Assembly: GCA_002763225.1 (NCBI GenBank) | Contig: PFAI01000025.1 | Location: forward strand, 9,839 to 36,119 | Direction: 5' to 3' | DNA: 26,281 nucleotides | Origin: Candidatus Diapherotrites archaeon CG10_big_fil_rev_8_21_14_0_10_31_34 | GTDB lineage: Archaea > Iainarchaeota > Iainarchaeia > Iainarchaeales > 1-14-0-10-31-34 | In this document: positions 12,147-26,281 of the stretch, in pieces | How positions within the stretch are numbered: position 1 is the first letter of the stretch | How the letters are laid out: each line of letters starts with the position of its first letter | Position numbers and translations under genes: made by a program | The notes under the pieces: generated by a model | Seen by the model: only the letters and a program-made list of their open reading frames with translations | Databases searched by the model: none | Told to the model about the DNA's origin: nothing

Positions 12147-12893
12147 ATGTTATTTGAAAATAAAACTATTGTTGTGACCGGTTCAGCTAAAGGGATAGGA
12201 AAAGAAATTGCGCTTCAGTTCGGAAAAGAGAAAGCAAATGTCGTGGTAAGCGATTTAAGCAAAGAAGACTGTATTAAAACAGTTAAAGAAATACTTTCTT
12301 TTGGGGGGAAAGCCATTTCAGTTAAATGTGATGTTTCAGATAAAATTCAAGTCAAGGCATTAATTGGTTCTGCAGTCAAAGAATTCAATTCAATTGATGT
12401 TCTGGTTAATAATGCAGGAATTTATCCTTTTGCTTCTTTTCAAGAAATGACAGAAAAACAATGGGACAAAGTAATTGACATTAATTTAAAGGGAACTTTC
12501 TTGTGTTCAAGGGAAGCAGCAAAACAAATGATAAAACAAGGAAAAGGCGGAAAAATAATCAATATTTCTTCTGTTGCAGGAATTCTTGGTTTTTGTTCGC
12601 TGGCTCATTATTGTGCATCCAAAGGAGGAGTTAATGCTTTTACTAGGGCTTTAGCTTTAGAGCTGGCTCAATTCAAAATAAATGTTAATGCTGTTGGCCC
12701 CGGTCCGATTAAAACACCAGGAATAGGTAACCTTGACGAAAAAATATTAAAGGGAATTATTGATTCAGTTCCTTGGGGGAGAATAGGAGAACCAGCAGAC
12801 ATAGCTAATGCAATTTTGTTTCTTGCTTCAGATAAAGCCGATTTTATTACAGGGCAAGTACTTGAAGTTGACGGCGGAATGACAATAAAATAA
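12147..12893 (+). CDS. SDR-family NAD(P)-dependent oxidoreductase (FabG-like)
   Basis: TGSAKGIG, NNAG, catalytic S and YCASK, FITGQ..VDGG. Confidence 0.95.
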   Translation: MLFENKTIVVTGSAKGIGKEIALQFGKEKANVVVSDLSKEDCIKTVKEILSFGGKAISVKCDVSDKIQVKALIGSAVKEFNSIDVLVNNAGIYPFASFQEMTEKQWDKVIDINLKGTFLCSREAAKQMIKQGKGGKIINISSVAGILGFCSLAHYCASKGGVNAFTRALALELAQFKINVNAVGPGPIKTPGIGNLDEKILKGIIDSVPWGRIGEPADIANAILFLASDKADFITGQVLEVDGGMTIK

Positions 12894-12898
12894 TGTTT

Positions 12899-13285
12899 TT
12901 ATTGCAGGTTGCCGATGAAATAATTTTCCCTTAAAGTTCTTGCATTATCTGAATGAGGGGTTCCAGAACCCATTGACCTGTTTTCAAATAATTCTGTTGC
13001 GTCTTTACCGCATCCTTCAAGAATTGCGGTTCCTCCAGGATGAGACGGAATGAATTCAGTTACATCAAAAACTTTTCCGCTTAAAACAAGCCAGCAGTCA
13101 TCTGCATTATTATGTTTTGCTATCTCGCTTAAAGAAAAAGTTTTTGGTGCAGAACCATTATCTGAATTATCTTTTGTTCTGTTTTGATTATCTGCTGCTC
13201 CGTTGTTTTTAACTGGTTCCAACTGAGTGCAGCCAGAAACTAAAATTATTACAAGTATTCCGGCTAAAATTATTTTGTTTTTCAT
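12899..13285 (-). CDS. Cytochrome b5-like heme-binding lipoprotein (start re-called at ATG 13285)
   Basis: Lipobox-like LVSGC; HNNADDCW, VFDVTEF..HPGG, GKDAT, PHS. Confidence 0.88.
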   Translation of the reverse strand: MKNKIILAGILVIILVSGCTQLEPVKNNGAADNQNRTKDNSDNGSAPKTFSLSEIAKHNNADDCWLVLSGKVFDVTEFIPSHPGGTAILEGCGKDATELFENRSMGSGTPHSDNARTLRENYFIGNLQ

Positions 13286-13301
13286 AAATTTTTCTTCCAA
13301 A

Positions 13302-13661
13302 TTAATTTTTACAGTCAACGCAGTCAATTCCTTTGCATAATGCATTATGGTTTTTCCATTTAATTGCCCATTCTTTTATTTCTTTTATTACTTTAATGAA
13401 ATCTTTCCCGCTTTCAGTTAAAGAATACTCTGATTTAATAGGAAAAGTTTTAGCGGAAATCTTTTTTTTAATCAAGCCGCTTTTTTCTAAATTCTTTAAT
13501 CGAATAGAAAGCGATCTTGGATTAACGTTATTCAGATTGCGTCTGATTTCAGAATACCTTTTAGGCTTAAGTTTGTTTTTGCATAACTGGACTAAAATCT
13601 CTAAAGACCATTTTTTTCCAATCAGGCCGGCCGCAACAAAAACAGGGCATTTTTTGTTCAT
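13302..13661 (-). CDS. HxlR-family winged-HTH regulator with Cys-rich C-terminal tail
   Basis: N-terminal CPV...IGKKWS, LSIRLKNLE, EYSLTESG; tail CKGIDCVDC. Confidence 0.88.
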   Translation of the reverse strand: MNKKCPVFVAAGLIGKKWSLEILVQLCKNKLKPKRYSEIRRNLNNVNPRSLSIRLKNLEKSGLIKKKISAKTFPIKSEYSLTESGKDFIKVIKEIKEWAIKWKNHNALCKGIDCVDCKN

Positions 13662-13692
13662 AATTAATAAAGAAACAGAAACATTATATATT

Positions 13693-13728
13693 TAACTATG
13701 GTTTTTATAGTTAGTATACTTTATACTA
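13693..13728. promoter_or_regulatory. Two overlapping inverted repeats upstream of the hxlR-like gene (candidate operator)
   Basis: TAACTAT-N7-ATAGTTA (13693..13713) and TAGTATA-N3-TATACTA (13712..13728). Confidence 0.45.
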
Positions 13729-13791
13729 TTAATAGAAATTAGAAAAACAATAATAAATAAAATGGTAAAAAAGAAACAGGATCAGAGGATG

Positions 13792-14067
13792 TCAGCATCC
13801 TCCAACCATGTCCGGAGCATTACTTAATTTGTCCAGAATTTCCTGATCAGTTTGTTTGGCATTATTTGAACTTGTATTGTCTGTATTGCCTGACAAAACT
13901 ACTGTTTGTTGCGGTGCTTTTTCAAATGAAGCAATTTTTCCGCTTAATTCATTTAACTGAACTGCAGAAACAACTGAAACCACAAAAAGTATTGCGACAA
14001 AAACAAGCAACAAATTGTCAAACCCCAGTATGCCTGGCTTTGATTTATCTGGTTTTGTTTCGCTCAT
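13792..14067 (-). CDS. Small single-TM protein ending in PDMVGGC
   Basis: One TM and a low-complexity linker; SD AGGAGGT (14075..14081) 7 nt upstream; C-terminal motif shared with the neighbouring gene. Confidence 0.8.
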   Translation of the reverse strand: MSETKPDKSKPGILGFDNLLLVFVAILFVVSVVSAVQLNELSGKIASFEKAPQQTVVLSGNTDNTSSNNAKQTDQEILDKLSNAPDMVGGC

Positions 14068-14068
14068 T

Positions 14069-14779
14069 TTAACAACCTCCTACCATGTCTGGTACACTTT
14101 CATTGACTTGATTTAAAAGGTCTTCATTGTAAGTCCCTTCTTGTGCAGCCAATTCTAATGCTCTTTTAGTCATCTGTTTAGGGAAAAACAATGTTTTCCA
14201 TTTAACTAATTCATTTAATATTTCCTGGTCTGTGTAATTGTCTGCGTGATTCTGCAAAAGATATTTTGCTAATCCTCTCATTGCATAAGAATGAGCGCAA
14301 CCGCATGCAGCTTTTCCGTCAGGAAAAGTAATTGCTTTTGCTCCGCAGCAAAACTCGCAGGAAATGCTTGTAGTTACTTTAATGTATCTTTCCTGCAGTT
14401 CTCCTTCAAGAGAAATTGCATTATCGAACTTTCCTAATACTGCTATTCCTGCAACCGGTTCATCATAACTTACTCCTAATTCAGTTCCATAATATTCCGG
14501 AATTCCTGACGGAATTATATCTGAAAGAGAAATTTGTTTTGAACCAGTATTTGCAGGCTGGTTGACTGATAAATTTGCTGTACTGCTCAAGGGATTGTTT
14601 GCTGTAATTGGATTGGTTGAAAAAGTTTTGTCTTCAAGAACCGAGGACAGTGAAGTCCCTAGGGAAATATTGTAAACCTGGACTAAAGCAACTAAAACAA
14701 TTAAACCAACAGTAAAATACTGTAAAATATTCATTTTTTTTGATTTATTTATTTCTTTTATTTGCTCTGTTTGCGTCAT
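14069..14779 (-). CDS. Single-TM protein with CEFCC...CGCAH Cys cluster, ending in PDMVGGC
   Basis: Strong SD AGGAGGT upstream; TM; SCEFCCGA and ACGCAHS motifs. Confidence 0.85.
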   Translation of the reverse strand: MTQTEQIKEINKSKKMNILQYFTVGLIVLVALVQVYNISLGTSLSSVLEDKTFSTNPITANNPLSSTANLSVNQPANTGSKQISLSDIIPSGIPEYYGTELGVSYDEPVAGIAVLGKFDNAISLEGELQERYIKVTTSISCEFCCGAKAITFPDGKAACGCAHSYAMRGLAKYLLQNHADNYTDQEILNELVKWKTLFFPKQMTKRALELAAQEGTYNEDLLNQVNESVPDMVGGC

Positions 14780-14802
14780 TTATTTTACCTCCTATTAAAA
14801 GA

Positions 14803-14821
14803 TTTACAAAAGATGTAAAGC
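14803..14821. promoter_or_regulatory. Candidate BlaI/CopY-type operator, copy 1 (TTTACA-N5-TGTAAAGC)
   Basis: TTTACAAAAGATGTAAAGC, between TTTATAAA (14828..14835) and the SD of the PDMVGGC operon. Confidence 0.7.
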
Positions 14822-14879
14822 AACACATTTATAAACATATTTTAATATGGTTAGTTAGGCAGGATAATTAAGTGGTAAA

Positions 14880-15242
14880 ATGGAACTGCATAAAATTGAT
14901 TTTGAAAAAAAAGGGCTTAATTCTTTAGTGGGCAAACTTGAATCAGACATAATGGATAGTTTGTGGGAAAAAAAGAAAGCTACCTGCAGGGAAGTGTTTG
15001 ATGCAGTAGATAAAAAAAACGATGTAGCTTATACTACAATTACTGTTACAATGGACAGAATGCATTCAAAAGGATTAATTGAAAGAAAAATACATAAAGG
15101 AAAAGGCGGGTTAATTTACACTTATTCCCCTAAATACAGCAGAATGGAATTAAGCGAGGAAGTGTCAGATAAATTTGTTTCTTTTCTGAAAGACACTTTT
15201 GGAAGTTCTTCTGTTGCCTACCTGAGGAAAAAACTGAAATAA
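14880..15242 (+). CDS. BlaI/MecI/CopY-family transcriptional repressor
   Basis: GKLESDIMDSLW, VAYTTITVTMDRMHSKGLIER, YTYSP. Confidence 0.9.
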   Translation: MELHKIDFEKKGLNSLVGKLESDIMDSLWEKKKATCREVFDAVDKKNDVAYTTITVTMDRMHSKGLIERKIHKGKGGLIYTYSPKYSRMELSEEVSDKFVSFLKDTFGSSSVAYLRKKLK

Positions 15243-15250
15243 GGATTTAA

Positions 15251-15967
15251 ATGGTTGAAACTGTTTCAGCAGTGGATTGTGCTGTTCAATGCGTAGCAGG
15301 ACAAAATCCTTTCTTAATGTACTTCAATTATTTTCTTATTGGATTAATTTTAATTTCAATTCTTGTTCTTGTTTTAATCAGAAAAAAGCTTTCAATTAAA
15401 CAATCTCTTTTTGTTAAGGCAGTTCTTTCAACTTCAATTATCCTGCTTTTATTAATTCTTGCTTTTGCAAACTCTCATTATCAGACAGTTTTCCATACGG
15501 CTCATCTGGCTGCATTATTTTCTGCAGGCCTGTTTTTTGTAGTATCCTATATTTTTTCCCCTTTGCTGATGCAGATTGGACTGACAAAAACAAAAGATGA
15601 AAGAGTTGAAAAAATAACAAAAGAAGAATCAGTAAAACTCTCAATATTAAACCCTGAAATAATTGTTTTTGTAAATGCTGAACCAAATGCTTTTGTTGTT
15701 TCAGGATATAAAAAAATAATTTTTATTTCAACAGGGTTAATTGATTTGTTGAATGAAAAAGAATTAAGGGCAGTAATAAAACATGAGTTAATGCATTTGA
15801 AAAGCTCTTTCTTTAATATTAAAAGATTTTTTTCTTCAGTCAGGGCAGGCACTTTTGGTCTGCTTCCAATTCACTTTGAAGAACTTGATATTCTTGAAGA
15901 AATAAAACTTGACAGGAAAATGGGAAAAGAAACAGAAGTTCTGGATAAGGCAAGAGAAAAACTCTGA
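15251..15967 (+). CDS. Membrane zinc metallopeptidase, M48/M56 (BlaR1-like) without a penicillin-binding domain
   Basis: Three TMs, PNAFV, ISTGL..LL..ELRAVIKHELMH (HExxH); adjacent to the blaI-like gene. Confidence 0.82.
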   Translation: MVETVSAVDCAVQCVAGQNPFLMYFNYFLIGLILISILVLVLIRKKLSIKQSLFVKAVLSTSIILLLLILAFANSHYQTVFHTAHLAALFSAGLFFVVSYIFSPLLMQIGLTKTKDERVEKITKEESVKLSILNPEIIVFVNAEPNAFVVSGYKKIIFISTGLIDLLNEKELRAVIKHELMHLKSSFFNIKRFFSSVRAGTFGLLPIHFEELDILEEIKLDRKMGKETEVLDKAREKL

Positions 15968-15993
15968 AGCAGTTTCCTTTAAAAACTTATTGT

Positions 15994-16014
15994 GCTTTAC
16001 AAATAATGTAAAGC
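15994..16014. promoter_or_regulatory. Candidate BlaI/CopY-type operator, copy 2
   Basis: GCTTTACA-AATAA-TGTAAAGC with perfect 8-bp arms, just downstream of TTTAAAAA and upstream of SD GGAGG. Confidence 0.72.
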
Positions 16015-16040
16015 TTTAATCGGCTTATGGAGGTTTTTTT

Positions 16041-16403
16041 ATGGACTTGTTTAAAACAGCAGTTATTTCACTTTTTGTTGTTGCACTGATTGGAGTAATT
16101 TCAGTTTCAGTTGCCGCGCATTTATCAGGGGATTCTGTTGAAGCCAATTCAGTTGATTCTTCTGATGCAGATTTTTTTGCTGAAATGCAGGCAATGCATG
16201 GCGGAAATTTTGAGGAATTTCATCAGAATCTTTTAGGAGACAACTGGAAAGAAGAAATGCAGGCAATGCACGAAGCAATGGCTGAAGGAAACTTTGATGA
16301 AATGGCTGAACACTGCCCTTTGATGAAAGGATTGGGTAACAAAGAAGAAATTCAGGGCAACACTGGAGAAATAGATGAGCCAATGCAGGGAATGATGCAA
16401 TAA
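16041..16403 (+). CDS. Secreted/anchored Met/His-rich putative copper-binding protein with EMQAMH repeats
   Basis: Signal peptide; EMQAMH twice (17-bp DNA repeat at 16182 and 16254); EMAEHCPLM; MQGMMQ. Confidence 0.75.
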   Translation: MDLFKTAVISLFVVALIGVISVSVAAHLSGDSVEANSVDSSDADFFAEMQAMHGGNFEEFHQNLLGDNWKEEMQAMHEAMAEGNFDEMAEHCPLMKGLGNKEEIQGNTGEIDEPMQGMMQ

Positions 16404-16418
16404 AAATATTTTATCTGG

Positions 16419-16495
16419 AAAGCCGTTAATTTTTTTCATTGAATCTTTCTTGAGTACCCCTCTAAATTGTGTTCAGGAAATTGATTTACGGCTTT
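16419..16495 (+). other. Long intercistronic hairpin followed by a pyrimidine tract (terminator, attenuator or processing site)
   Basis: AAAGCCGT/ACGGCTTT outer stem; 12-bp TTTCTTGAGTAC/GTGTTCAGGAAA inner stem whose G-U pairs work only on +. Confidence 0.5.
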
Positions 16496-16564
16496 TCCCC
16501 TCTTTTAGTTTTAATAAAATAAAAAAAGTTAATAACCAAAACAAATATTGACTAGGTGGGGTAA

Positions 16565-17158
16565 ATGGACGGAATTAATAATCATCAATTAACTAAAAAA
16601 GAAAGAAAAGAACTGAAAAAAAAACTGAGAAAAGAAAGAGAAGAAAATGAACTTAAAGCAAATGACAGAAACAAAACAACAAAAAAAATAATTAAAATAG
16701 GGGTTGCTGCTTTAATTTTGATTTTTATTGGTGCTTTTGTAATCCAAACAATTTCAGTGAGTACTCCTGACTCAAGAGGTTCTGGAACAATAAAAATTAC
16801 TCCTGAAGTAAAGGACTTTGGGAATGTTAGTGTTGGGCAAGGCACTGTAAGCACTTCAATGGAAATAATTAATGAAGGAAAAGGAAAGCTTACATTGACC
16901 GGATTAAAATCTTCCTGCATGTGCACTAGTGCAGTAGTAGTAATTGATGGAATTGAAAGCCCTGTTTTTGGAATGCATAGCAATCCTGTCTGGTCTAAAT
17001 CAATTGAACCAGGACAAAAAGCCCAGTTAAAAATTTTTTATGACCCTGCTGCTCATCCGGATTTAAGAGGAGCAGTAACAAGAATTGTTTCAATTTATTC
17101 TAATGATCCATTAAACCCAGAGAAAATTGTCAGAATTAATGTCAATCAGGTGTCATAA
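16565..17158 (+). CDS. DUF1573 (Ig-like) membrane-anchored protein
   Basis: TM; DFGNV..INEGKGKL..SSCMCT..IEPGQ..IYSND. Confidence 0.8.
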   Translation: MDGINNHQLTKKERKELKKKLRKEREENELKANDRNKTTKKIIKIGVAALILIFIGAFVIQTISVSTPDSRGSGTIKITPEVKDFGNVSVGQGTVSTSMEIINEGKGKLTLTGLKSSCMCTSAVVVIDGIESPVFGMHSNPVWSKSIEPGQKAQLKIFYDPAAHPDLRGAVTRIVSIYSNDPLNPEKIVRINVNQVS

Positions 17159-17161
17159 AAA

Positions 17162-17575
17162 ATGAATGAAAAAGTTTTTTTTGTTTTGATTATTTCTTTA
17201 ATTATTTTTTCTGGATGTATTTCCGCCGGCCAGCCAGAACCAGAAAACAAGAAGCCTTCAATAGAAATTACTCCAAAAAGTTTTGATTTTGGGACTGTTC
17301 CAAACGAAAAAATTGAAAAAGTTTTTTTTGTTAAAAACACTGGAAAAGGATTTTTGGAAATCCTTGGGGTAAGCACTTCCTGCGGCTGCACTAAAGGAAC
17401 AATAAACAAAAAATTAATTAAGTCAGGAGAAACAGCTGAACTGCTTGTTTCAATTGATCCTGATTTGATGGGCGAAAAAGTTGTGGGCAAAATTGAAAGA
17501 ATTGTTTATGTCAAAAGCAATGATTCTGATAATCCTGAAATTGAAATTGAATTAACTGCAAATATTCTGGAGTGA
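17162..17575 (+). CDS. DUF1573 (Ig-like) lipoprotein
   Basis: Lipobox-like FSGC; FDFGTV..KNTG..TSCGCT..KSND. Confidence 0.82.
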   Translation: MNEKVFFVLIISLIIFSGCISAGQPEPENKKPSIEITPKSFDFGTVPNEKIEKVFFVKNTGKGFLEILGVSTSCGCTKGTINKKLIKSGETAELLVSIDPDLMGEKVVGKIERIVYVKSNDSDNPEIEIELTANILE

Positions 17576-17579
17576 AAAA

Positions 17580-18788
17580 ATGAAAATTAAATTTATTGCA
17601 TTGTTTTTGGTTTTATTGTTTTTGCCTGCATTTTCTTTTGCCGCAAATTATGAAAATGCAGTAATTTATTACAACAAAGCATGTCATGGATGCACAATGT
17701 ATATTGAAGATAATATTGAGCCGTTGCTTGAAAGCCATGGAATTAAAATTGAAAAAAAAGATTTTATCAGCGAAAAAGAAAACAGAATTGAATTAAATGA
17801 GTTAAGCAGGCAGTTAGGTATTCCCCCCCAGCTTCAGGGGCATTTCACTATTATTATTGGCAACAAAATTATTCTGGAAGGACACGTTCCTGAAGAAATA
17901 ATTGAATATCTTTTGGAATCAGAAAACGAGTTTGAAAAAATAATTGTTTTTCAGGATGAAATGGATAACGCGGAAAATTATAAAGCATGGGCTTTCAAAG
18001 GAGAATTAAAAGAATACAAAATTGATGAACCTATTTCAGCTTATTTAAACTGGTTTAATGAAAATAAAGATTCTTTGGAAACCCCAAAAGAACTGCTTTC
18101 GGATTCACTGGATTTCTGGCAGCTTCTGCCCCTGGTTTTGATTACAGGCTTATTGGATGGAATTAATCCTTGCGCTTTTGGAGTGTTATTGTTTTTCATT
18201 GCATTTCTTTATTCAATGAACCGGTCAAAAATGGAAGTATGGAAAGTCGGAAGCGTGTTTATTTTAGCGATTTTTGTTGCATATTTTTTGATTGGATTAG
18301 GTTTGCTTCAGGCAATATTAATTACAGGCATTCCCCACTTGTTTGGAAAAATCAGCGTGTTTTTAATGCTGTTTTTGGCTTTAATTAATTTTAAGGATTA
18401 CTTTTTTTATGGGAAATGGTTTAGCCTGAAAATGCCTTCTTTTGCTACTCCAATAATAAAAAAAAGAATGACAAACATAACTCTTGTTTCTGTTGCAGTG
18501 CTTGGTTTTCTGGTTGGTTTATGCACTTTTCCCTGCAGCGGGGGAATTTATATAGGAATACTTTCTTTGCTTGCAATCCAGACAACTTTTATGCAGGGAA
18601 TGGCTTTCCTTGTAATCTATAATATAATGTTTGTTGTTCCCCTGATAATAATTTTATTGGTTGCAGGAAACAAAAAAGTAACAGAAAAAATAACTGAATG
18701 GGAAAAAGAAAACAAAAGAAAAATGAAGCTAGTGATGGGAATTGTATTGCTTGTTTTGGCGGCAATACTTTTTCTTTTTGCTTTTTAG
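17580..18788 (+). CDS. Thioredoxin-like (CxxC) plus CcdA/DsbD transmembrane thiol-redox fusion protein
   Basis: Signal peptide, ACHGC, TM domain with DGINPCAF and LCTFPCSGGIY. Confidence 0.85.
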   Translation: MKIKFIALFLVLLFLPAFSFAANYENAVIYYNKACHGCTMYIEDNIEPLLESHGIKIEKKDFISEKENRIELNELSRQLGIPPQLQGHFTIIIGNKIILEGHVPEEIIEYLLESENEFEKIIVFQDEMDNAENYKAWAFKGELKEYKIDEPISAYLNWFNENKDSLETPKELLSDSLDFWQLLPLVLITGLLDGINPCAFGVLLFFIAFLYSMNRSKMEVWKVGSVFILAIFVAYFLIGLGLLQAILITGIPHLFGKISVFLMLFLALINFKDYFFYGKWFSLKMPSFATPIIKKRMTNITLVSVAVLGFLVGLCTFPCSGGIYIGILSLLAIQTTFMQGMAFLVIYNIMFVVPLIIILLVAGNKKVTEKITEWEKENKRKMKLVMGIVLLVLAAILFLFAF

Positions 18789-18800
18789 GAGGACAATAAC

Positions 18801-18947
18801 ATGAATGAATGCTTTTATTGCAGGAAAAAAACTGAAAACGTTTTAGAAAAAGACGGAAAAAAATTTTGTTCAGAAGAATGCATTAAAGAATACAATAAAA
18901 AACTGGAAAAAATGCTTGAAGGAAAAAATACCTGTGAGTTCTGCTGA
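18801..18947 (+). CDS. 48-aa TRASH/YHS-like metal-binding protein, absent from the ORF track
   Basis: SD GGAGG upstream; translates MNECFYCRKKTENVLEKDGKKFCSEECIKEYNKKLEKMLEGKNTCEFC; fills the operon gap. Confidence 0.8.
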   Translation: MNECFYCRKKTENVLEKDGKKFCSEECIKEYNKKLEKMLEGKNTCEFC

Positions 18948-18962
18948 AGGAGTTAATCAGGA

Positions 18963-19526
18963 ATGAATTCTCTGAAAGAAAAAAAACATTATTTTTTTGG
19001 ATTGCTTGCATTTCTCGGAATGATTGCGTTTTATTTTGCCATTCTGATTATTGCTAATTCATTTGAACATGCTTTAAGTGAATTCCAGAGAATCTGGTAT
19101 TTTATTTTATTTATTTCAGTTGGTTTTGGGGTTCAGACTGCGTTGTATTTTTACATAAAAAATTTTTTGATTAATTCTTCTGCAAAAGCCAGTGTTGCCG
19201 GGTCAGCCGGAGTTTCAGGCGTGTCAATGGCTGCCTGTTGTGCGCATCATTTAACAGATTTTTTGGCGGTATTAGGGTTATCTGTTTTTGCTGTTTTGTT
19301 AAGCCAATATCAGGTTTCATTAATGCTTGTGGCAGTTTTTTCTAATCTGCTTGGAGCAATTTACATGCTTTCGGTAATTAAAAAACATAATTTAATCAGA
19401 CAGGAAACTGTTTTATTGAAAAAAATAATTTCAGTTGATCTGGATAAATCATTTAACTTGTTTTTAGTGATTGGGCTGGCTTTGATTGTTTTATCAGTTA
19501 TTTATTCTTTTAATGGAGTAAATTAA
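18963..19526 (+). CDS. Multi-TM membrane protein with MAACCAHH metal-binding motif
   Basis: 4-5 hydrophobic helices; SMAACCAHHL; SD GGAG. Confidence 0.75.
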   Translation: MNSLKEKKHYFFGLLAFLGMIAFYFAILIIANSFEHALSEFQRIWYFILFISVGFGVQTALYFYIKNFLINSSAKASVAGSAGVSGVSMAACCAHHLTDFLAVLGLSVFAVLLSQYQVSLMLVAVFSNLLGAIYMLSVIKKHNLIRQETVLLKKIISVDLDKSFNLFLVIGLALIVLSVIYSFNGVN

Positions 19527-19541
19527 AAAAGAGGTGAAAAA

Positions 19542-19880
19542 ATGCAGGCAAATGAATTAGCAATGTATGGTTTGATTTTCTTTGGCATAATATTATCAGG
19601 CATGGCTTTAATGAATTTAAATCAGGTACAGCATAAAACGGTAATTTCAACTGATGAGAAAGGAGTTGTCCTGAAAACAGAAGAAAACCAAAAAATATTT
19701 GAAGAACAAGCAATTGAACTTGACTCGAAATGCGGGGATTTGGAAGACAAGGAAAACATCCAGCATTTAAGCCATCATCCGGGCATGTATATGGAATGCC
19801 TTGAACAGGTTGATTCAGAAAAACTAATGGAAGCAACAGGAAAAACTTTAGAAGAAATTTTAGGGCAAAATTTTAATTAA
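19542..19880 (+). CDS. Membrane-anchored hypothetical protein with C...HLSHHPGMYMEC motif
   Basis: SD GAGGTG; N-terminal TM; His/Met/Cys cluster. Confidence 0.7.
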   Translation: MQANELAMYGLIFFGIILSGMALMNLNQVQHKTVISTDEKGVVLKTEENQKIFEEQAIELDSKCGDLEDKENIQHLSHHPGMYMECLEQVDSEKLMEATGKTLEEILGQNFN

Positions 19881-19895
19881 AAAGGAGGAAAAAAC

Positions 19896-20312
19896 ATGAA
19901 AACAATAACCATTGGGGCAATAATTTTACTGCTTTTATTAGTTGGATGCGTTAACACTGAACCCAAAGCCCAAACAATAAAAGAAAAAGATAAACAAAAC
20001 AATGAACAAAAAATCAGTTTTACTGATATTTCTGCTCAAGAACTAAAACAAAAGCTTGAAAACAAGGATTTCTTTTTATTGGATGTTCATGTTCCTGAAC
20101 AGGAACACATTAAAGGAACAGATGAATTCATTGCATTTGACAAGATAGAAGAAAACATTGACAAGCTTCCAAAAAACAAGGAAACCCTAATTGTAGTTTA
20201 CTGCAGAAGCGGAAACATGAACATAACTGCATCAGAAAAATTAGTTGAATTAGGGTACAAAAATGTGATGAATCTTGAAGGCGGAATAAAAGCTTTTAAT
20301 TCATTGGAATAA
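19896..20312 (+). CDS. Rhodanese-like lipoprotein
   Basis: SD GGAGG; lipobox LVGC; LLDV..HIKGT..VYCRSG..NLEGG. Confidence 0.88.
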   Translation: MKTITIGAIILLLLLVGCVNTEPKAQTIKEKDKQNNEQKISFTDISAQELKQKLENKDFFLLDVHVPEQEHIKGTDEFIAFDKIEENIDKLPKNKETLIVVYCRSGNMNITASEKLVELGYKNVMNLEGGIKAFNSLE

Positions 20313-20339
20313 TAAAAAAAATGTTTTTAGGATGAAAAA

Positions 20340-20765
20340 TTGAATAAAAAAATAAAATATTCTGTAATTGGATTAATGATTTCAATAGTCTTTTTCTTGA
20401 TTATGGGTACTCCGACTGCATTAATTTCAACTCCTTTAATTAAATATTCAAGAATGATTCCTGCAACATTTTTAGATTACTTTTTTTTAATTACAACTTC
20501 GGTTCTGCTTGGAACTTTAATTTCATTAAAACTTTACTTTAACTCAAAAGAAAAATCAGAGTATAAAGCAGCAGCAGGAGGGATAGCGGGATTTATTGCT
20601 TTTAGTTGCCCTATATGCAATGTACTGCTTGTTTCAGCATTAGGTTCTGCTACAATCATGACTTTTATTGAGCCATTAAGGCCTGTTCTGGGAATTGCAT
20701 CAATAATAATTTTAATTTATCTGATTTACAGAGAATTAACCTGCAAAAAGTGTAAAAAAAGTTAA
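20340..20765 (+). CDS. Four-TM membrane protein with CPIC and C-terminal CKKC
   Basis: TTG start; FSCPICN inside a hydrophobic segment. Confidence 0.7.
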   Translation: MNKKIKYSVIGLMISIVFFLIMGTPTALISTPLIKYSRMIPATFLDYFFLITTSVLLGTLISLKLYFNSKEKSEYKAAAGGIAGFIAFSCPICNVLLVSALGSATIMTFIEPLRPVLGIASIIILIYLIYRELTCKKCKKS

Positions 20766-20786
20766 TGAAATAAAAAAAGTTAATTT

Positions 20787-21218
20787 CTAATGTTTGTGCC
20801 CTGAAAAGTTTTTCTTGAATGAGTCAGCGCAATGAGAACAGCAGAAAACAGTTTCTTTTCCTTTAATTTTTTCTTTATATCCTCCTTTGAATATTTCGCA
20901 TCCGCAGTGAGCGCACTTTGAAAGATTTGGTTCAATAGCCAGTTCAACTAAATCGCCAAACCTTGAAAGCATTGTCTGGCAGAACTTTTTCCCTAAAGAG
21001 GTTAAAACATAAATCTTTTTTTCACGTTTTCCCTCAGATTTTATTTTAATATAGTTTTCTTTCTGGAGCTTTGCAAGAAAAGGGTAAATTTGGCTTGCAG
21101 AAACTTTTCTTCCCATTTTTTTTTCCACGGTTTTAATCAAATCATAGCCGTGTTTAGGGCCTTCAAACAACAGTATAAGAGAATAAAATTTCACTAAATT
21201 ATCCACTTTTACTTCCAT
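20787..21218 (-). CDS. PadR-family regulator fused to a C-terminal TRASH-like metal-binding domain
   Basis: PKHGYDL..SQIYPFL..KKIYVLT; CAHCGC...FCCSHC. Start re-called at ATG 21218. Confidence 0.87.
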   Translation of the reverse strand: MEVKVDNLVKFYSLILLFEGPKHGYDLIKTVEKKMGRKVSASQIYPFLAKLQKENYIKIKSEGKREKKIYVLTSLGKKFCQTMLSRFGDLVELAIEPNLSKCAHCGCEIFKGGYKEKIKGKETVFCCSHCADSFKKNFSGHKH

Positions 21219-21250
21219 AAATAAAATGTTATGCAAAAGATTTAAAAAAA

Positions 21251-21273
21251 GATATATCTTAATATGATATATC
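21251..21273. promoter_or_regulatory. GATATATC-N7-GATATATC candidate PadR operator in the divergent promoter
   Basis: Two palindromic octamers at 21251 and 21266, between padR and the copA operon. Confidence 0.6.
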
Positions 21274-21353
21274 GTAAAATGGTGTGTGGCTGAATAGATG
21301 ATAAAAAGAAAAAGAAATGCTGTTAATTTTGATTAATATTTGGGGGTAATAAG

Positions 21354-21599
21354 ATGGCTGAAAAATTAAATGAACTTGCATTGGGTTATTCCGGAGGAAT
21401 TGTTTCCGGTTTGGGAATGCTTTTGCTGGGGGTTTTTGGTAATTTTGGAGTTTATTCAGGAATGGCAGGAATGATGGAAGAAGGCCACATGTTTTTTTCT
21501 TTGACTCCTGTTGGAATAATTTTTGGGATAATTGAAGCAGGAGTAATGGGTTTTATTGCAGGCTATGTAATTGCTTTAGTTTACAATAAATTTGCCTGA
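21354..21599 (+). CDS. Small two-TM protein with MMEEGHM loop
   Basis: SD-like GGGGGT; Gly-rich hydrophobic helices; first gene of the copA operon. Confidence 0.7.
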   Translation: MAEKLNELALGYSGGIVSGLGMLLLGVFGNFGVYSGMAGMMEEGHMFFSLTPVGIIFGIIEAGVMGFIAGYVIALVYNKFA

Positions 21600-21624
21600 A
21601 GCTTTCTCTAAAAAAGGTGTTTTG

Positions 21625-22005
21625 ATGTATGGATACAAAAAAGAATTCAAGGGAAGTTTTGATGAGGCTTGTGAAAGAACAGTTGAAGAGCTAAAAAAAG
21701 AAGGCTTTGGGGTTTTAACTGAAATCAATGTAAAAGAAACCCTGAAAAAAAAATTAAACAAAGACTTTGATAATTATAAAATTTTAGGGGCCTGCAATCC
21801 GGCTTTTGCTTTCAAAGCATTGGATGCAGAAAAAGAAATTGGTTTATTGATGCCTTGCAATGTAATTGTATTTGAAGACAAAGGAAAAGTTTTTGTTTCA
21901 GCAGTTCTTCCAAGTAAAATGATGAATGCAGTGGAAAACAAAGAACTGGAAAAAATTGCAGTTGAAATAGAAGAAAAACTGAAAAAAGTTATTAATGGAG
22001 TATAA
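21625..22005 (+). CDS. DUF302 domain protein (start re-called at ATG 21625)
   Basis: [34 protein letters not shown]. Confidence 0.88.
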
Positions 22006-22006
22006 A

Positions 22007-25000
22007 ATGAAAGCAATTGACCCTGTCTGCGGAATGACAGTAGAAAAAGAAAAAGCCAAATTCAAGACAGTTAAAGAAGGAAAAGAATATTTTTTTTGCT
22101 CTAAAAACTGTTTTGATAAATTCACTGGAAAAGAAAAAGCAACAGAACATAAACATTTCATTGATTCTGATTCAAAAGAAAAAAATCATGCTTCAAAAGA
22201 AATCACAGACTCTTCTTCAAAAGAAACTTCTTCTGTTTCAAGGGAAACAATTTTGATTAAAGACATGCATTGTGCTTCCTGTGCATTAACAATAGAAAAA
22301 TCTTTAAAAAAAATTGATGGAGTTAAATCTGCTAATGTTAATTTTGCTACTGAAAAAGCAGTGGTTGAATTTGATAAAAATACAGTTAGCAGGGAAAAGT
22401 TTGAGGAAACAATTGAAAAAGCAGGATACGGCATAATAAAAGAAGAAAAAGAGTTTGGGAAAAACAAAGTTGTATTAAAAGTTCATGGAATGGATTCTCA
22501 GCATTGTGCAGGAATAATTGAAGACACATTAAAAAAAATTGATGGAGTGAAAAGCTATCAAACTAATCTGACAACACAAAAAGCAACTGTTTTGTTTGAT
22601 TCTTCTGCTGTAAAAGTAAGTGATTTGATTAAGGCAATCGGGAATGCAGGTTATGAAACAGAAAAATATGCGCCAACTGATATTGAAAGAGATGCAAGGC
22701 AAAAAGAAATTAAAGAATATAAAAACAAGTTTCTTTTGTCGATTGCCTTGTCTTTGCCTTTAATGTATTTAATGTTTTCAAATTTTTTTGCTTTGCCTGT
22801 TCCTGAAACAATTCTTGAAAATGAGGTATTGATTCAGTTATTGCTTGCAACTCTTGTGATGTGGATCGGAAAAAAGTTTTTTATTTCAGGTTTCAAGGCT
22901 TTAATTCTGAACAGGAACCCTAACATGGATTCTCTTGTAGCAATTGGGGTTGGTTCTGCTTACAGTTTCAGCTTAATTGCATCAATAATGATTTTTTCCG
23001 GTTCAGCTTTGTTTACTTCAATGGACTTGTATTTTGAAGTAGCAGCTTTTTTGATTGCATTTATTTTATTGGGAAAATATTTTGAAGCATTGGCTAAAGG
23101 AAAAACTTCTGAAGCAATAAAAAAGTTAATGGGCTTGCAGGCAAAAACTGCTTTAGTGGAAAGAAACAAAAAAGAAACTGAAATCCCAATAGAAGAGGTT
23201 TTGATTGGAGATATTGTTATTGTTAAGCCCGGAGCAAAAATTCCTGTTGATGGAAAACTTGTTTTTGGTCATTCAAGTGTTGATGAAAGCATGGTTACAG
23301 GAGAAAGCATTCCGGTTGAAAAAAACATTAATGATTTGGTTATTGGAGCAACAATAAACATGACAGGAAGCTTTAAATTCAGGGCAGAAAAAGTTGGTGA
23401 AGAAACTGTTTTATCCCAGATAATTAAGTTTGTTGAAGATGCTCAGGCAAGCAAGGCTCCAATACAGGAATTGGGAGACAAAATTGCTTCAGTTTTTGTT
23501 CCTGCTGTAATGGCAATAGCAATTATTTCTGCTTTATTGTGGTTTTTTGTTTTTGGCCAGGGATTTTTGTTTTCTTTAACTATTTTTATTAGCGTAATGA
23601 TTATTGCTTGTCCTTGTGCTATTGGCTTGGCTACCCCTACTGCTGTAATGGTTGGAACTGGATTAGGAGCAGAGCACGGGATTTTGATTAAGAATGCTTC
23701 AGCACTTCAGAAAGCAGGAGAAATTAATGCAGTTGTTTTTGATAAAACCGGTACTTTAACTAAAGGAAAACCTGAAGTAACAGACATTATTTCTTTAAAC
23801 GGATTCAAAGAAAAAGAAATTTTAGAGATTGCTGCTGCAGTTGAAAACAAGTCAGAGCATCCTTTAGGTGAAGCAATAGTTAAAGCTGCAAAACAAAAAA
23901 AAATTAGTTTTGATGAACTAAAAGAATTTAATTCAGTCAGCGGAAAAGGAATTAAAGCAAGTTATAAAGGAAAAAACATTCTGCTTGGAAACAGGAAATT
24001 AATGGAAGAAAATAAAATTGAAGTAAGTGGACTGGAAAACTCTTTACAGGAACTTGAAAATAACGGAAAAACTGTTGTAATGCTTTCAGTTAACAATAAG
24101 CTTTCCGGAATAATTAGCGTTGCTGACACTTTAAAGGAAACTTCTTTTGATGCAGTAAAACAATTAAAGGAAATGCATTTGGATGTAATAATGATTTCAG
24201 GGGATAATGAAAGAACTGCAAGAGCAATCGGAGAAGAAACAGGAATTGAAAGAGTTTTTGCTGAAGTTTTGCCGGAAGAAAAAGCAGAAAAAATACTGGA
24301 GTTGCAAAAAGAAGGACGGTGTTTAATCCCGGGTTCATTAATATTTTCTAATCCAACCTTAAAAGAAATAGAAAAAGTAGACGTTGGGGATAAAGTTTTA
24401 TCATCAAATGGCAAAAGTCAAATAGTAAAAGAAGTTTTTAAAAGAAATTACGAAGGAGAAATTGTAAATATTAAAGCAGCTTATTTGCCTCAAGTTTCAA
24501 TGACCCCCGAACACCCTGTAAAAGTGTTTAGATATGAAAAAATTAAAAATAGAAAAAATATATACAGAAAATTCAATAGAGGATTCAAAGATTTTAATAA
24601 TTATTTAAACTGGGTGGAAGCAAAAAACTTGACTAATTCTGACTATGTAGTTTTCCCAAAATATAATGTGGAGGAAACCACAAGTTTAGACTTAACCAAA
24701 TACATATTAAATGAAAAATATTATAGGATAAATAAAAATCGAATTGTTTCCAGCCAAAACATATCTTTGCCTAAAATGATTGGCGTTAATCAAAAGTTCT
24801 TAGAGTTGTGTGGCTGGTATTTAGCAGAAGGCAGTGCAAACAATAAAATGGTTGAATTTTCTTTGTCTAGAAGAGAAAAAGTTCGTGCAAATAGAATTGG
24901 AAACTTGATTGAAAATATCTTTGGGGTTAGTCCGGTAATTGAAATAAGAGATAAAGAGATTAGAGTGAGAATAAAATCAAAACTTTTAGTTAGATTTTTT

Positions 25001-25771
25001 AGAGATCAATTTAATTCACACGCTAAGAACAAAAAGATTCCTATATGGATAACAAATGCGCCTAAATCTTATTTGTTTTCATTCTTAGAAGCTTATAGAT
25101 TTGGTGATGGACATTCTACAGATAAACTATGGATATTCAATACTGCATCAAGAATTTTAGCTAATCAATTGCTAATAGTCTTAAACAAGTTAGGGTATGT
25201 TGGGAGTTTAAATGAAAATAAAGGGGCAAGGCGTGGTAGCACGATGTATGTTGTAACAGTATCTAAAAATCCAAAAAGAAAGTATTATATTGAGAATAAG
25301 GATTTTTATTTACTTCCAATTAGAAAAAAAACAAAGTCTAAATATAAAGGAAAAGTTTATAATCTTGAAACCGAAGACCATACCTATTCTGCTTTATTTG
25401 TAGTACACAATTGTGTAGGTGCTGTGGGGGACGGGATAAACGACGCTCCAATGTTGGCTCAGGCAGACATTGGAATTGCAATTGGTTCCGGAACTGATGT
25501 AGCAATTGAAACAGGCGGCATTATTTTAGTTAAAAATGATTTAAGGGACGTGGTTAAAGCAATTAAGTTAAGCAGGCATTCAATGAATAAAATAAAACAG
25601 AATTTTTTTTGGGCTTTTGCTTATAATCTAATAGGAATCCCTGTTGCTGCAGGGATATTGTTTCCTTTTACCGGAATTTTGTTGAGCCCTGTTATTGCAG
25701 GAACTGCAATGGCTTTCAGCTCAGTTTCAGTTGTAACTAATTCTCTTTTATTAAAGAATGCAAAAATTTAG
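22007..25771 (+). CDS. copA: Cu(I)-translocating P1B-type ATPase with YHS and two HMA domains, interrupted by an intein
   Basis: DPVCGM..FCSKNC (YHS), MHCASC, degenerate [43 protein letters not shown] before ATG 22007. Confidence 0.95.
24320..25411 (+). mobile_element. 364-aa intein with LAGLIDADG endonuclease domain inside copA
   Basis: Block A CLIPGSLI, block B MTPEHP, blocks [10 protein letters not shown] and EAYRFGDG, block [12 protein letters not shown], block G VVHN/C(+1). Confidence 0.95.
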
Positions 25772-25792
25772 AAACCCTTTGCCAGGAACCCT

Positions 25793-25915
25793 GCTAAAAA
25801 GAGGCATTAAAACTTTTGGTTTTGCCGGAAAGGAGGTATCGGAACCGCAGGTTCTGATTTGGCAAGCCGTTTATGGGAAACAAACTCGGCGGGTTTTAAC
25901 CCTCTGTAGTTTAGC
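25793..25915 (+). ncRNA. Putative structured RNA element (three-way junction) downstream of copA
   Basis: Nested pairings GCTAAA/TTTAGC, AGAGG/CCTCT, TTAAAACTT/GGGTTTTAA, with arms TTGCCGG/TTGGCAA plus ATCGGAACC/GGTTCTGAT, and GCCG/CGGC. Confidence 0.45.
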
Positions 25916-25969
25916 TGAAAACCATTAATTTTAAGGCATTAACACAATATAATATTGCAGGCAATAAAT

Positions 25970-26281
25970 GTGAAGTTTGGAATAATTTTAGGAACAAATG
26001 AACCAGAAAAAGCCTGGAATGCTTTCAGGTTTGGAGTGACAGCGCTTAAGGAAAACCATCAAGTAAAAGTTTTTCTTTTAAACGAAGGCGTTGAAGCAGA
26101 AGGCATTCAAAACAAAGAATATAACGTGAAACAACAAATTGATTTGTTCATTGAAAACAAAGGCCAAATACTGGTCTGCGGAACCTGCTTAAAGTCAAGG
26201 CAAAAAGAAGGCAGCAATGTCTGCCCGATTTCAACAATGAAAGACCTGCTTAAACTGGTTGAAGAATCAGACAAAATCCTG
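25970..26281 (+). CDS. DsrE/DsrF-like (YchN-type) protein, truncated at the window end; not in the ORF track
   Basis: GTG start; MKFGIILGTNEPEKAWNAFRFG...VFLLNEGVE...VCGTCLKSR...CPISTMKDLL. Confidence 0.85.
   Translation, partial: MKFGIILGTNEPEKAWNAFRFGVTALKENHQVKVFLLNEGVEAEGIQNKEYNVKQQIDLFIENKGQILVCGTCLKSRQKEGSNVCPISTMKDLLKLVEESDKIL

Follow-up and report, generated by a model that had tools for sequence, protein, structure and literature searches.

CcmH is described as a single-pass anchored thiol reductase that folds as a three-helix bundle with a CxxC motif between helices 1 and 2, and a pocket next to this motif is thought to take the cysteine-containing motif of apocytochrome c (PMC3884852). 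CopG is reported to hold a cysteine-bridged Cu4 cluster through a CxCC motif and two methionines, and is linked to copA and cus genes (PMC7558416). SoxY is described as holding its sulfur substrate on the cysteine of a C-terminal GGCGG that acts as a mobile arm (PMC6067878). Here we analyze a 26,281-nucleotide (nt) stretch of DNA from Candidatus Diapherotrites archaeon CG10_big_fil_rev_8_21_14_0_10_31_34 (assembly GCA_002763225.1, contig PFAI01000025.1, positions 9,839 to 36,119 of the forward strand; hereafter ‘the window’), in which two adjacent genes encode membrane-anchored proteins of 236 and 91 amino acids (aa), named LONG and short, that end in the same heptapeptide, PDMVGGC. The source organism is a tiny archaeon from groundwater and belongs to the DPANN archaea, which are mostly uncultured and have few recognizable stress systems; how their exposed envelope is protected is largely unexplained. 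We find that the terminal cysteine is conserved across a family of paired, tethered proteins with an invariant cysteine centre, and we conclude that each tail is probably a flexible arm by which copper or electrons are handled outside the cell.

Both genes lie on the minus strand. The tail and stop codons read CCA GAC ATG GTA GGA GGT TGT TAA in LONG and CCG GAC ATG GTT GGA GGA TGC TGA in short, giving four synonymous differences (in the Pro, Val, Gly and Cys codons) and no replacement; because of this pattern, and because the tail is conserved in homologues, the peptide is, judged from its sequence, under selection. The ATG of short starts 1 nt past the stop codon of LONG, so that the two genes form one operon. 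Each protein has a single N-terminal hydrophobic helix with lysines ahead of it, from which, following the positive-inside rule, we infer that the N-terminus is inside and the bulk of each protein outside the cell. Both contain TDQEIL, and LONG carries the motifs CEFCC and CGCAH. A sequence-only reading of the window had drawn attention to the identical ends, their synonymous codons, the membrane segments and these motifs, all of which are borne out. It had also held the two proteins to be otherwise largely dissimilar: BLASTP indeed sees nothing beyond the tail region (8/19 identical, E 7e-4) and TDQEIL (7/9), but with its similar membrane helix and same tail, short looks like a paralogue of LONG minus the domain. 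In the host genome (1.04 megabases, 31% G+C, 81% complete), LONG and short are the only two GGC-ending products among 4620 open reading frames (ORFs) of at least 40 aa. This rarity, together with the conservation in relatives, excludes chance as the origin of the shared tail.

Sequence searches with LONG returned 1346 homologues at E≤0.01. Those that carry a name are all called ‘hypothetical’, and those with a taxonomic label come from DPANN archaea, namely Iainarchaeota/Diapherotrites, Micrarchaeota, Woesearchaeota, Pacearchaeota, Aenigmatarchaeota and Nanoarchaeota. Conservation of the motif in homologues had been proposed as a test of the initial idea, and among the 120 best homologues the ending [VI]GGC is found in 105. 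Furthermore, an exhaustive profile search among 1.84 billion representatives yielded 342 clusters (50% identity) at E≤0.001; of the best 150 of these, the tail has the form [MQIF][VI]G[GSA]C in 114 and a different G-x-C form in 17, the remaining tail-less ones being mostly fragments or read-through gene calls. The family is undescribed, as had been suspected: LONG matches no Pfam or NCBIfam family; Pfam applied to 116 LONG-family members at E≤10 gives no recurring family (the most frequent, DUF2615, in seven members with a best E of 0.015); sequence and profile searches of solved structures return spurious repeat-protein matches or E>1; the ESM Atlas holds unnamed clusters of the LONG family alone; and our literature search found no description of the MVGGC motif or of the LONG family.

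In the window's phylum, where 39 of 215 genomes carry it, the family is an accessory trait; it occurs in 17/58 high-quality genomes of the phylum and in 2/6 of the window's own genus. A DNA pattern for M-V-G-G-C-stop matches 70 times in 34 of the 215 genomes, and comparison of coordinates places every match either at the 3' end of a LONG-family gene or at most about 0.7 kilobases (kb) downstream on the same strand. Genomes of the phylum that are LONG-negative, 176 in number, contain no match to this pattern, and a reversed control pattern gives none. The tail is thus confined to the module and is no general sorting signal shared by many proteins.

The pairing of LONG and short was assessed by scanning one genome per species, which gave at least 528 loci; 80 were kept, all of them archaeal records, and tails were counted per locus as ORFs ending in G[GS]C. 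At least two such ORFs are present in 69/80 loci (two in 61, three in seven and four in one), with one tail in 10 loci and none in one. The second tailed ORF usually encodes 56–140 aa directly downstream of LONG, and its product has a membrane helix with a VQAFQI-like, Q-rich end that LONG shows too, followed by a low-complexity linker and then the tail. Overall, by our tally, 77/80 loci have a short ORF with a tail downstream of LONG. Where a single tail remains, it stands on the short ORF alone in eight of the 10 loci, the tail having gone from LONG; in the other two it stands on LONG alone, one locus having no short ORF and one lying at a contig end. Across 68 aligned short proteins V88, G89 and C91 are invariant. 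Position -4 of the tail, Met or Gln, is identical in LONG and short of one locus in 64/65 pairs, compared with a mean of 53.4 and a maximum of 58 in 2000 label shuffles, a figure that kinship of the loci inflates.

Part of the family carries further motifs. Met/His-rich inserts occur in 36/82 short proteins and are of two types, ETYEQMMARMHP (16 proteins) and WTEDEKMxYEHHG (20 proteins); some LONG homologues have inserts like those of the short proteins, and CC motifs in linkers also occur. Twelve of the 82 short proteins have an N-terminal CC, a cytoplasmic His/Asp/Glu-Cys-Cys-Lys motif ahead of the membrane helix (loci L022, L034, L035, L041, L050, L062, L068, L071, L073 and L076), and such proteins would therefore bear soft-metal-type motifs on both sides of the membrane. 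Rare metagenomic forms (P0242, P0243, P0244 and P0324) place a signal peptide and an FKBP-type prolyl isomerase ahead of the LONG domain and keep the tail. The three longer, fused LONG-family proteins found are all FKBP fusions, and Pfam on 14 long LONG-family representatives shows no other fusion partner.

The domain that sets LONG apart from short carries a cysteine centre. Nineteen columns are invariant in 116 LONG homologues, including C141, E142, C144, C145, C159, C161 and H163, and these seven positions are kept in 187–188 of 188 non-redundant members, including all 25 tail-less ones. An AlphaFold2 model of LONG based on 116 sequences has a mean predicted local distance difference test score (pLDDT) of 86, and of about 97 for residues 91–200; it comprises a membrane helix (18–51), a disordered linker (pLDDT 52–58) and a confident helical domain. 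A second model was made for P0103, a homologue 42% identical to LONG with a Gly/Ser-rich linker. The tail has a pLDDT of 81 in the LONG model (residues 231–236) and 78 in the P0103 model, compared with 47–61 for the N-terminal linker.

Foldseek found nothing in the PDB at E≤0.001 for the LONG model. With VIA-align, residues 119–199 of LONG match 2hl7_A, the periplasmic domain of Pseudomonas aeruginosa CcmH, as the top of 48,161 chains (Z 6.7, root-mean-square deviation 2.6 Å, 71/82 residues; next Z 5.1), and the P0103 model again has 2hl7_A as its top match (Z 6.1, deviation 2.7, 75/82 residues; next Z 4.0), VIA-align treating a Z of 8 as safe and a common helical arrangement being able to explain matches below that. 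From these models we read the LONG core as a CcmH-like scaffold in which the CxxC loop appears expanded to CExCC, with an inserted CGCAH hairpin. As to where the tail might meet the domain, a contrast of Q-tail and M-tail sequences first pointed to positions 143 and 149 beside CExCC, and weighted mutual information between tail and domain over 273 sequences was led by the variable columns 204, 87, 113, 153, 148 and 156. A complex prediction of LONG 81–222 with short 38–91, using both alignments and run without controls, scored 0.03 relative to a mark of 0.32 and is counted neither way.

The ORFs at 12147–26281 of the window map onto clusters that recur in the 80 loci, and the features of the window are collected in Table 1. 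The rhodanese, DsrE, CcdA and peptidase listed by the sequence-only reading were all found, as a rhodanese, a DsrE fragment, a DsbD/CcdA-like domain and an M48/M56 peptidase; a DUF302 protein is also encoded. The product of 16041–16403 contains repeated EMQAMH-like motifs and is, by composition, a candidate Cu(I)-binding protein. In the fusion at 17580–18788 the N-domain matches DUF411 at E 0.0015, below the cut-off, with CHGC where CGCC is expected; its CopG-like and DsbD/CcdA-like parts are separate genes in other loci. The CopA-type ATPase has 1258 aa, with the YHS and HMA domains N-terminal and an intein with a LAGLIDADG homing endonuclease inside the HAD/phosphorylation domain.

Table 1. 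Features of the window, in positions of the 26,281-nt stretch.
Feature	Positions	Strand	Basis
LONG, 236 aa, membrane-anchored: N-terminal transmembrane (TM) helix, disordered linker, helical Cys-centre domain, PDMVGGC tail	14069..14779	-	ORF
LONG predicted membrane helix, about residues 18-40, Lys-rich N-terminus before it	14660..14728	-	sequence; model helix 18-51
LONG putative CcmH-like core, residues 119-199: helix, CxxC-bearing loop, two helices	14183..14425	-	VIA-align
LONG invariant cysteine centre, C141-E142-x-C144-C145 ... C159-G-C161-A-H163	14291..14359	-	alignments of homologues
LONG tail codons, P-D-M-V-G-G-C, residues 230-236	14072..14092	-	ORF translation
short, 91 aa: N-terminal TM helix, low-complexity linker, PDMVGGC tail	13792..14067	-	ORF
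short predicted membrane helix, about residues 16-37	13957..14022	-	sequence; conserved Q-rich helix end in 68 aligned short proteins
short tail codons, P-D-M-V-G-G-C, residues 85-91	13795..13815	-	ORF translation
Inverted repeat TTTACA-N5-TGTAAAGC	14803..14821	.	divergent promoter region, about 25-40 nt upstream of LONG start
BlaI/CopY-family winged-helix repressor, divergent from LONG	14880..15242	+	Pfam Penicillinase_R E 1.1e-15
M48/M56 (BlaR1-like) membrane metallopeptidase without sensor domain	15251..15967	+	Pfam Peptidase_M48 E 6e-10; M56 E 0.0024
Met/His-rich secreted or anchored protein, 11 Met and 5 His in 120 aa	16041..16403	+	sequence; no Pfam match
402-aa fusion, divergent CopG/DUF411-like N-domain (CHGC) and DsbD/CcdA-like membrane domain	17580..18788	+	DsbD_TM E 1.4e-6
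Membrane protein with CCAHH (group 2) and small anchored protein (group 6), family unassigned	18963..19880	+	40/80 and 23/80 loci
Rhodanese with lipobox-like signal	19896..20312	+	domain match and sequence
MerT-like membrane protein with CPxC	within 19896..21236	+	
PadR regulator with TRASH metal-binding domain	within 19896..21236	-	
CopA-type P1B ATPase, YHS and 2 HMA, intein-interrupted	21995..25771	+	Pfam E1-E2_ATPase, HMA, YHS, Intein_splicing, LAGLIDADG_3
DsrE fragment	25955..26281		window

Copper and thiol genes recur among the loci, so the link to metal or redox loci that had been named as a further test is present. Among 75 cases, the gene directly after the short protein or proteins encodes an unassigned CPxC membrane protein in 19 and a CopG-like/CcdA-like protein in 17. 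This latter group (group 3) is found in 39/80 loci, and within it bona fide DUF411/CopG (E ~1e-25) in 17 loci, a CopG-like N-domain of any kind in 31, and CcdA-like membrane domains in up to 24 members. Unassigned membrane proteins with CC or CxxxC are present in 40/80 loci, HMA-domain proteins in 23, PadR-TRASH in 18, MerT-like proteins in 17, Met-rich ones in 16 and cupredoxin-like ones in 11. Loci with one or more of the set HMA protein, PadR-TRASH, cupredoxin, Met-rich protein and DUF2933 number 45/80. In 9/80 loci, among them L034, L041, L050, L054, L066, L068 and L076, the second gene upstream of LONG encodes a bacterial-type Lgt (TIGR00544, 233 bits); in the seven named loci the LONG tail is lost and the short tail is kept.

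The promoter region upstream of LONG contains a dyad on which the BlaI-like repressor probably acts as on an operator. Of 12 non-empty intergenic stretches that separate the BlaI-like gene from LONG (the window and seven loci), eight contain TACA-N5-TGTA, and its form presumably corresponds to that of BlaI/CopY-type operators (TACA/TGTA). NCBIfam BlaI/CopY matches of the window's repressor are below their curated cut-offs, and its family (group 12) is found in 15/80 loci. The M48/M56 peptidase (M56/M48 in 16/80 loci) is in an operon with the repressor, and the representative of its group (group 10) matches M56 at E 3e-10. The sequence-only reading had mentioned a peptidase of the island beside the idea that the tails are processed. 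Because it pairs with a BlaI-type repressor and a conserved dyad stands before LONG, the M48/M56 peptidase is more likely a BlaR1-like partner of the repressor than an enzyme that processes the tails; at the sequence level the window shares with the BlaI/BlaR1 pair a Penicillinase_R repressor adjoining an M56 protease and a TACA/TGTA-type dyad. Most relatives differ in their upstream neighbour: among 76 cases it has two TM segments and a cytoplasmic winged helix (DUF7343) in 40 and is a BlaI-like repressor in 10. The two-TM protein (group 1; L050:1392-1898 and relatives outside the window; DUF7343 E 3e-14) has an outer loop with Cys and His and may serve as a one-component sensor of metal or thiols bound to the membrane.

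Taken together, the conserved terminal cysteine, its presence on two tethered proteins, the invariant Cys5His centre and the copper/thiol islands are the reasons for reading the tails as arms. From them we infer a topology, a docking of the arms, a cargo and a direction of transfer along the following lines. LONG and short would form the core of a conserved DPANN envelope module. LONG, held by one N-terminal helix, would display a helical, CcmH-like three-helix domain outside the cell, with the CxxC loop grown into the centre of five cysteines and one histidine (CExCC...CGCAH), and short would be LONG without that domain, with the tail still joined by a flexible linker to the membrane helix. 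The two tails (...[M/Q]-V-G-G-C-COOH) would be flexible tethered arms with a single thiol at the tip, able to reach the cysteine centre of LONG, the LONG tail in cis and the short tail in trans, and there to collect or deliver a thiophilic cargo. CcdA-like and thioredoxin-like neighbours would hold the thiols reduced, and expression would be controlled by the BlaI-like repressor and M56 protease in the window or by the membrane-bound winged-helix regulator in most relatives.

The cargo is most likely Cu(I), which would exit the cell via CopA or be handled by neighbouring CopG-like proteins. We favour Cu(I) because DUF411, HMA, TRASH and Met/His motifs surround the pair or sit inside it, because five cysteines and a histidine are more than a redox CxxC requires, and because CopG sets a precedent for copper clusters of the CxCC type. 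That the tails are tethered Gly-Gly-Cys arms passing Cu(I) to or from the LONG cysteine centre is a tentative conclusion, which we rate at just short of an even chance.

A number of findings weigh against Cu(I) arms. The nearest fold belongs to CcmH, which is a thiol-disulfide oxidoreductase rather than a metal protein, a point that favours a redox role; moreover, the fold match itself falls under the safe Z of 8. In hhalign, CEFC of LONG falls on CPKC of Escherichia coli CcmH over 87 columns in the register of the structural match, at P 0.17 for the E. coli protein and P 0.022 with a probability of 2% for 52 enterobacterial CcmH sequences, neither of which is significant, the CcmH profile being poor since its sequences are almost all enterobacterial. 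The tail methionine is replaced by Gln in 46/273 non-redundant tails, with loss of the thioether ligand. The sequence-only reading had proposed a Met/Cys arm for Cu(I) or electrons; the tethered cysteine arm fits the context, but an obligatory Met ligand is weakened by these Gln tails. The short protein of the window lacks a Met/His insert, and CopA-type ATPases with CPC, a subset of the HMA group, lie within 6 kb in just 8/80 loci. Rhodanese-containing proteins in 14/80 loci and the DsrE gene of the window leave room for a sulfur cargo. Finally, the counts of neighbouring genes, taken within about 6 kb, are based on crudely called ORFs and on BLAST clusters with one annotated representative each.

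A bolder version of the copper hypothesis, which we consider unlikely, can also be formulated. In it, the five LONG cysteines and the terminal cysteine of an arm (six thiolates, with the His and Met/Gln nearby) would form a cysteine-bridged multinuclear Cu(I) cluster shared between two tethered polypeptides, with short as an arm-only subunit that loads or unloads the cluster. The pair would then be a surface copper buffer and hand-off station, without a described counterpart in any organism, on a re-used CcmH redox scaffold and limited to ultra-small archaea; or else the terminal cysteine would carry a new covalent modification made by the LONG domain.

The main alternative, which draws on the resemblance to CcmH, is a metal-free thiol-disulfide relay, and we regard it as somewhat unlikely. 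Here LONG would be a CcmH-type surface oxidoreductase fed by CcdA-like and thioredoxin-like neighbours, and the terminal cysteines would be shuttle or resolving cysteines that form a mixed disulfide with CExCC and exchange electrons with envelope proteins that oxidation or copper has damaged. Two models have CcmH as their top structural match, with a CxxC in the equivalent loop, and CcmH is described as an anchored thiol reductase with a pocket for a cysteine peptide beside its CxxC (PMC3884852). The gene context is also suitable: besides the CopG-like/CcdA-like group and its frequent place directly after short, thioredoxin-like proteins occur in 15/80 loci, DsbA-like in 10 and AhpC/TSA in six, and in the fused forms the partner of the LONG domain is a folding catalyst, a secreted FKBP prolyl isomerase, as would fit folding or repair. 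However, five invariant cysteines and a histidine exceed the need of a redox CxxC, many short and LONG linkers have Met/His or CC motifs typical of soft-metal sites, and the copper-specific genes DUF411, HMA and TRASH recur. In addition, no cytochrome c maturation genes (neither Cytochrom_C_asm, PF01578, nor CcmH) were found in the genome, which is 81% complete, so that the classical CcmH substrate is absent.

A third possibility, that the Gly-Gly-Cys end is a SoxY-like carrier holding persulfide or polysulfide between envelope enzymes such as rhodanese, perhaps precipitating or detoxifying copper as sulfide, is in our view very unlikely. Its appeal lies in the C-terminal sulfur-holding cysteine of SoxY (PMC6067878), in the rhodanese genes of the loci together with a YgaP-like TM protein in 7/80, and in the rhodanese and DsrE fragment of the window. 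Rhodanese is, however, rarer in the loci than copper and thiol genes, no SoxY Pfam match exists in LONG, short or the genome, and no Sox, Dsr or Hdr enzymes are among the recurrent neighbour families; in addition, the cysteine here is the last residue, with no Gly-Gly after it.

The terminal cysteine could also be a lipidation, sorting or processing tag, lipid-modified or processed so as to pin the C-terminus to the membrane. The lipobox consensus is [LVI]-x-[GAS]-C, and VGGC fits it. Lipobox-like signals also start other proteins of the island: LVGC in the rhodanese (19896–20312), VSGC in a cytochrome b5-like protein (12899–13345) and FSGC in a DUF1573 protein (17162–17575). Adding the bona fide Lgt gene upstream of LONG in nine loci, the idea has a certain attraction, but Lgt is found in 0/215 genomes of the phylum, compared with the LONG family in 39. 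Lgt-dependent lipidation is rejected for the phylum, host genome included. Since lipobox-like signals are present there all the same, an archaeal pathway independent of Lgt is implied for the N-terminal signals. In Lgt-substrate lipoproteins the lipobox cysteine follows an N-terminal signal helix; here it is C-terminal behind a polar linker, with no preceding hydrophobic helix, in a tail far more invariant than lipoboxes. Archaeosortase, exosortase and rhombosortase signals (PGF-CTERM, GlyGly-CTERM) consist of a motif, a TM helix and a basic cluster and are found on many proteins per genome, whereas LONG and short end at the cysteine, with no TM segment or basic residues after it, and no protein family outside the module carries the tail. 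We consider a tag of this kind highly improbable, although archaea might have a lipoprotein enzyme of another type.

An end processed like a sulfur carrier or a RiPP (ribosomally synthesized and post-translationally modified peptide) had been floated by the sequence-only reading. A ubiquitin-like or RiPP-type end, with Gly-Gly exposed by removal of the cysteine or the tail as a core peptide modified by neighbours, has in its favour the Gly-Gly-Cys string and the adjoining peptidase, nothing more, and is scarcely credible: ThiS, MoaD and SAMP are cytoplasmic beta-grasp proteins served by an E1-like enzyme, but the LONG-family models are helical with an N-terminal membrane helix and no beta-grasp, the peptidase has a BlaI-type repressor as its partner and a dyad resembling an operator nearby, there is no E1-like or JAMM gene among the window proteins and recurrent neighbour families, and no YcaO, radical-SAM or lanthipeptide enzyme among the latter.

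To return to tethered arms for copper or electrons, the pair defines an unannotated family with a testable design, in which a conserved last-residue cysteine occurs twice per module and nowhere else in the phylum genomes examined. If the arms carry Cu(I), this would be a new route of copper traffic outside a cell; if they carry electrons, CcmH-type oxidoreductases would have a new branch, one operating in the absence of cytochromes c. In both cases, names and hypotheses become available for several ‘hypothetical’ genes of a widespread copper/thiol island, and the seven-residue peptide is a potential metal- or thiol-reactive tag. The LONG family and its paired-arm architecture are undescribed, while each principle has a precedent, in carrier arms, in CcmH-type scaffolds and in copper/thiol islands.

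Among known systems, the best structural match to the LONG core is P. aeruginosa CcmH of cytochrome c maturation System I (PDB 2HL7). As judged from the models, the two would be alike in being single-pass anchored, extracytoplasmic three-helix bundles with a CxxC after the first helix, and both would work beside CcdA/DsbD-type and thioredoxin-type proteins. In place of the LRCxxC of CcmH, LONG has [S/A]-C-E-[Y/F]-C-C (S-C-E-F-C-C in the window); unlike CcmH, it also has the CGCAH hairpin insert, an extra N-terminal subdomain (IPxGxPxxYG...) and a C-terminal arm, and its anchor is N-terminal. Pfam CcmH (CcmH/CycL/NrfF, PF03918) matches 0/116 LONG-family members at E≤10 and nothing in the genome. 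Given no match to the model, a different motif and a genome in which no CcmH or cytochrome c assembly genes were found, LONG is not a member of the CcmH family.

CopG/DUF411 (PF04214), which serves periplasmic copper resistance, resembles the LONG centre in carrying a dense cysteine motif outside the cytoplasm, and it stands next to the pair in 17 loci, or up to 31 with divergent forms, one of which is the fused form in the window. LONG and short have no DUF411 match, however; LONG has CxxCC and CGC where CopG has CxCC, and CopG is a soluble protein of thioredoxin-like fold that lacks a terminal arm. SoxY shares with LONG and short a Gly-flanked cysteine at the extreme C-terminus of an extracytoplasmic protein, on an arm that is mobile in SoxY and proposed to be so here. 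It differs in fold (no SoxY fold or PF13501 match here) and in the placement of the cysteine (VGGC-COOH versus GGCGG); here the arm occurs twice, on two tethered proteins, and in a copper/thiol context rather than beside Sox enzymes.

The Scs (suppressor of copper sensitivity) system of enterobacteria uses DsbD-like, thioredoxin-like and DsbA-like envelope proteins for copper tolerance. It shares the copper-thiol logic of the island but has no counterpart of LONG, short or the tail. In MerA (...CC) and mammalian thioredoxin reductase (...GCUG), a flexible Gly/Cys C-terminal tail links a buried redox centre to an outer site by moving metal or electrons from one to the other, much as we propose for the arms. 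Those enzymes are cytoplasmic flavoenzymes of unrelated fold, whereas here the arms would be extracytoplasmic, tethered to the membrane and duplicated on a protein without the domain.

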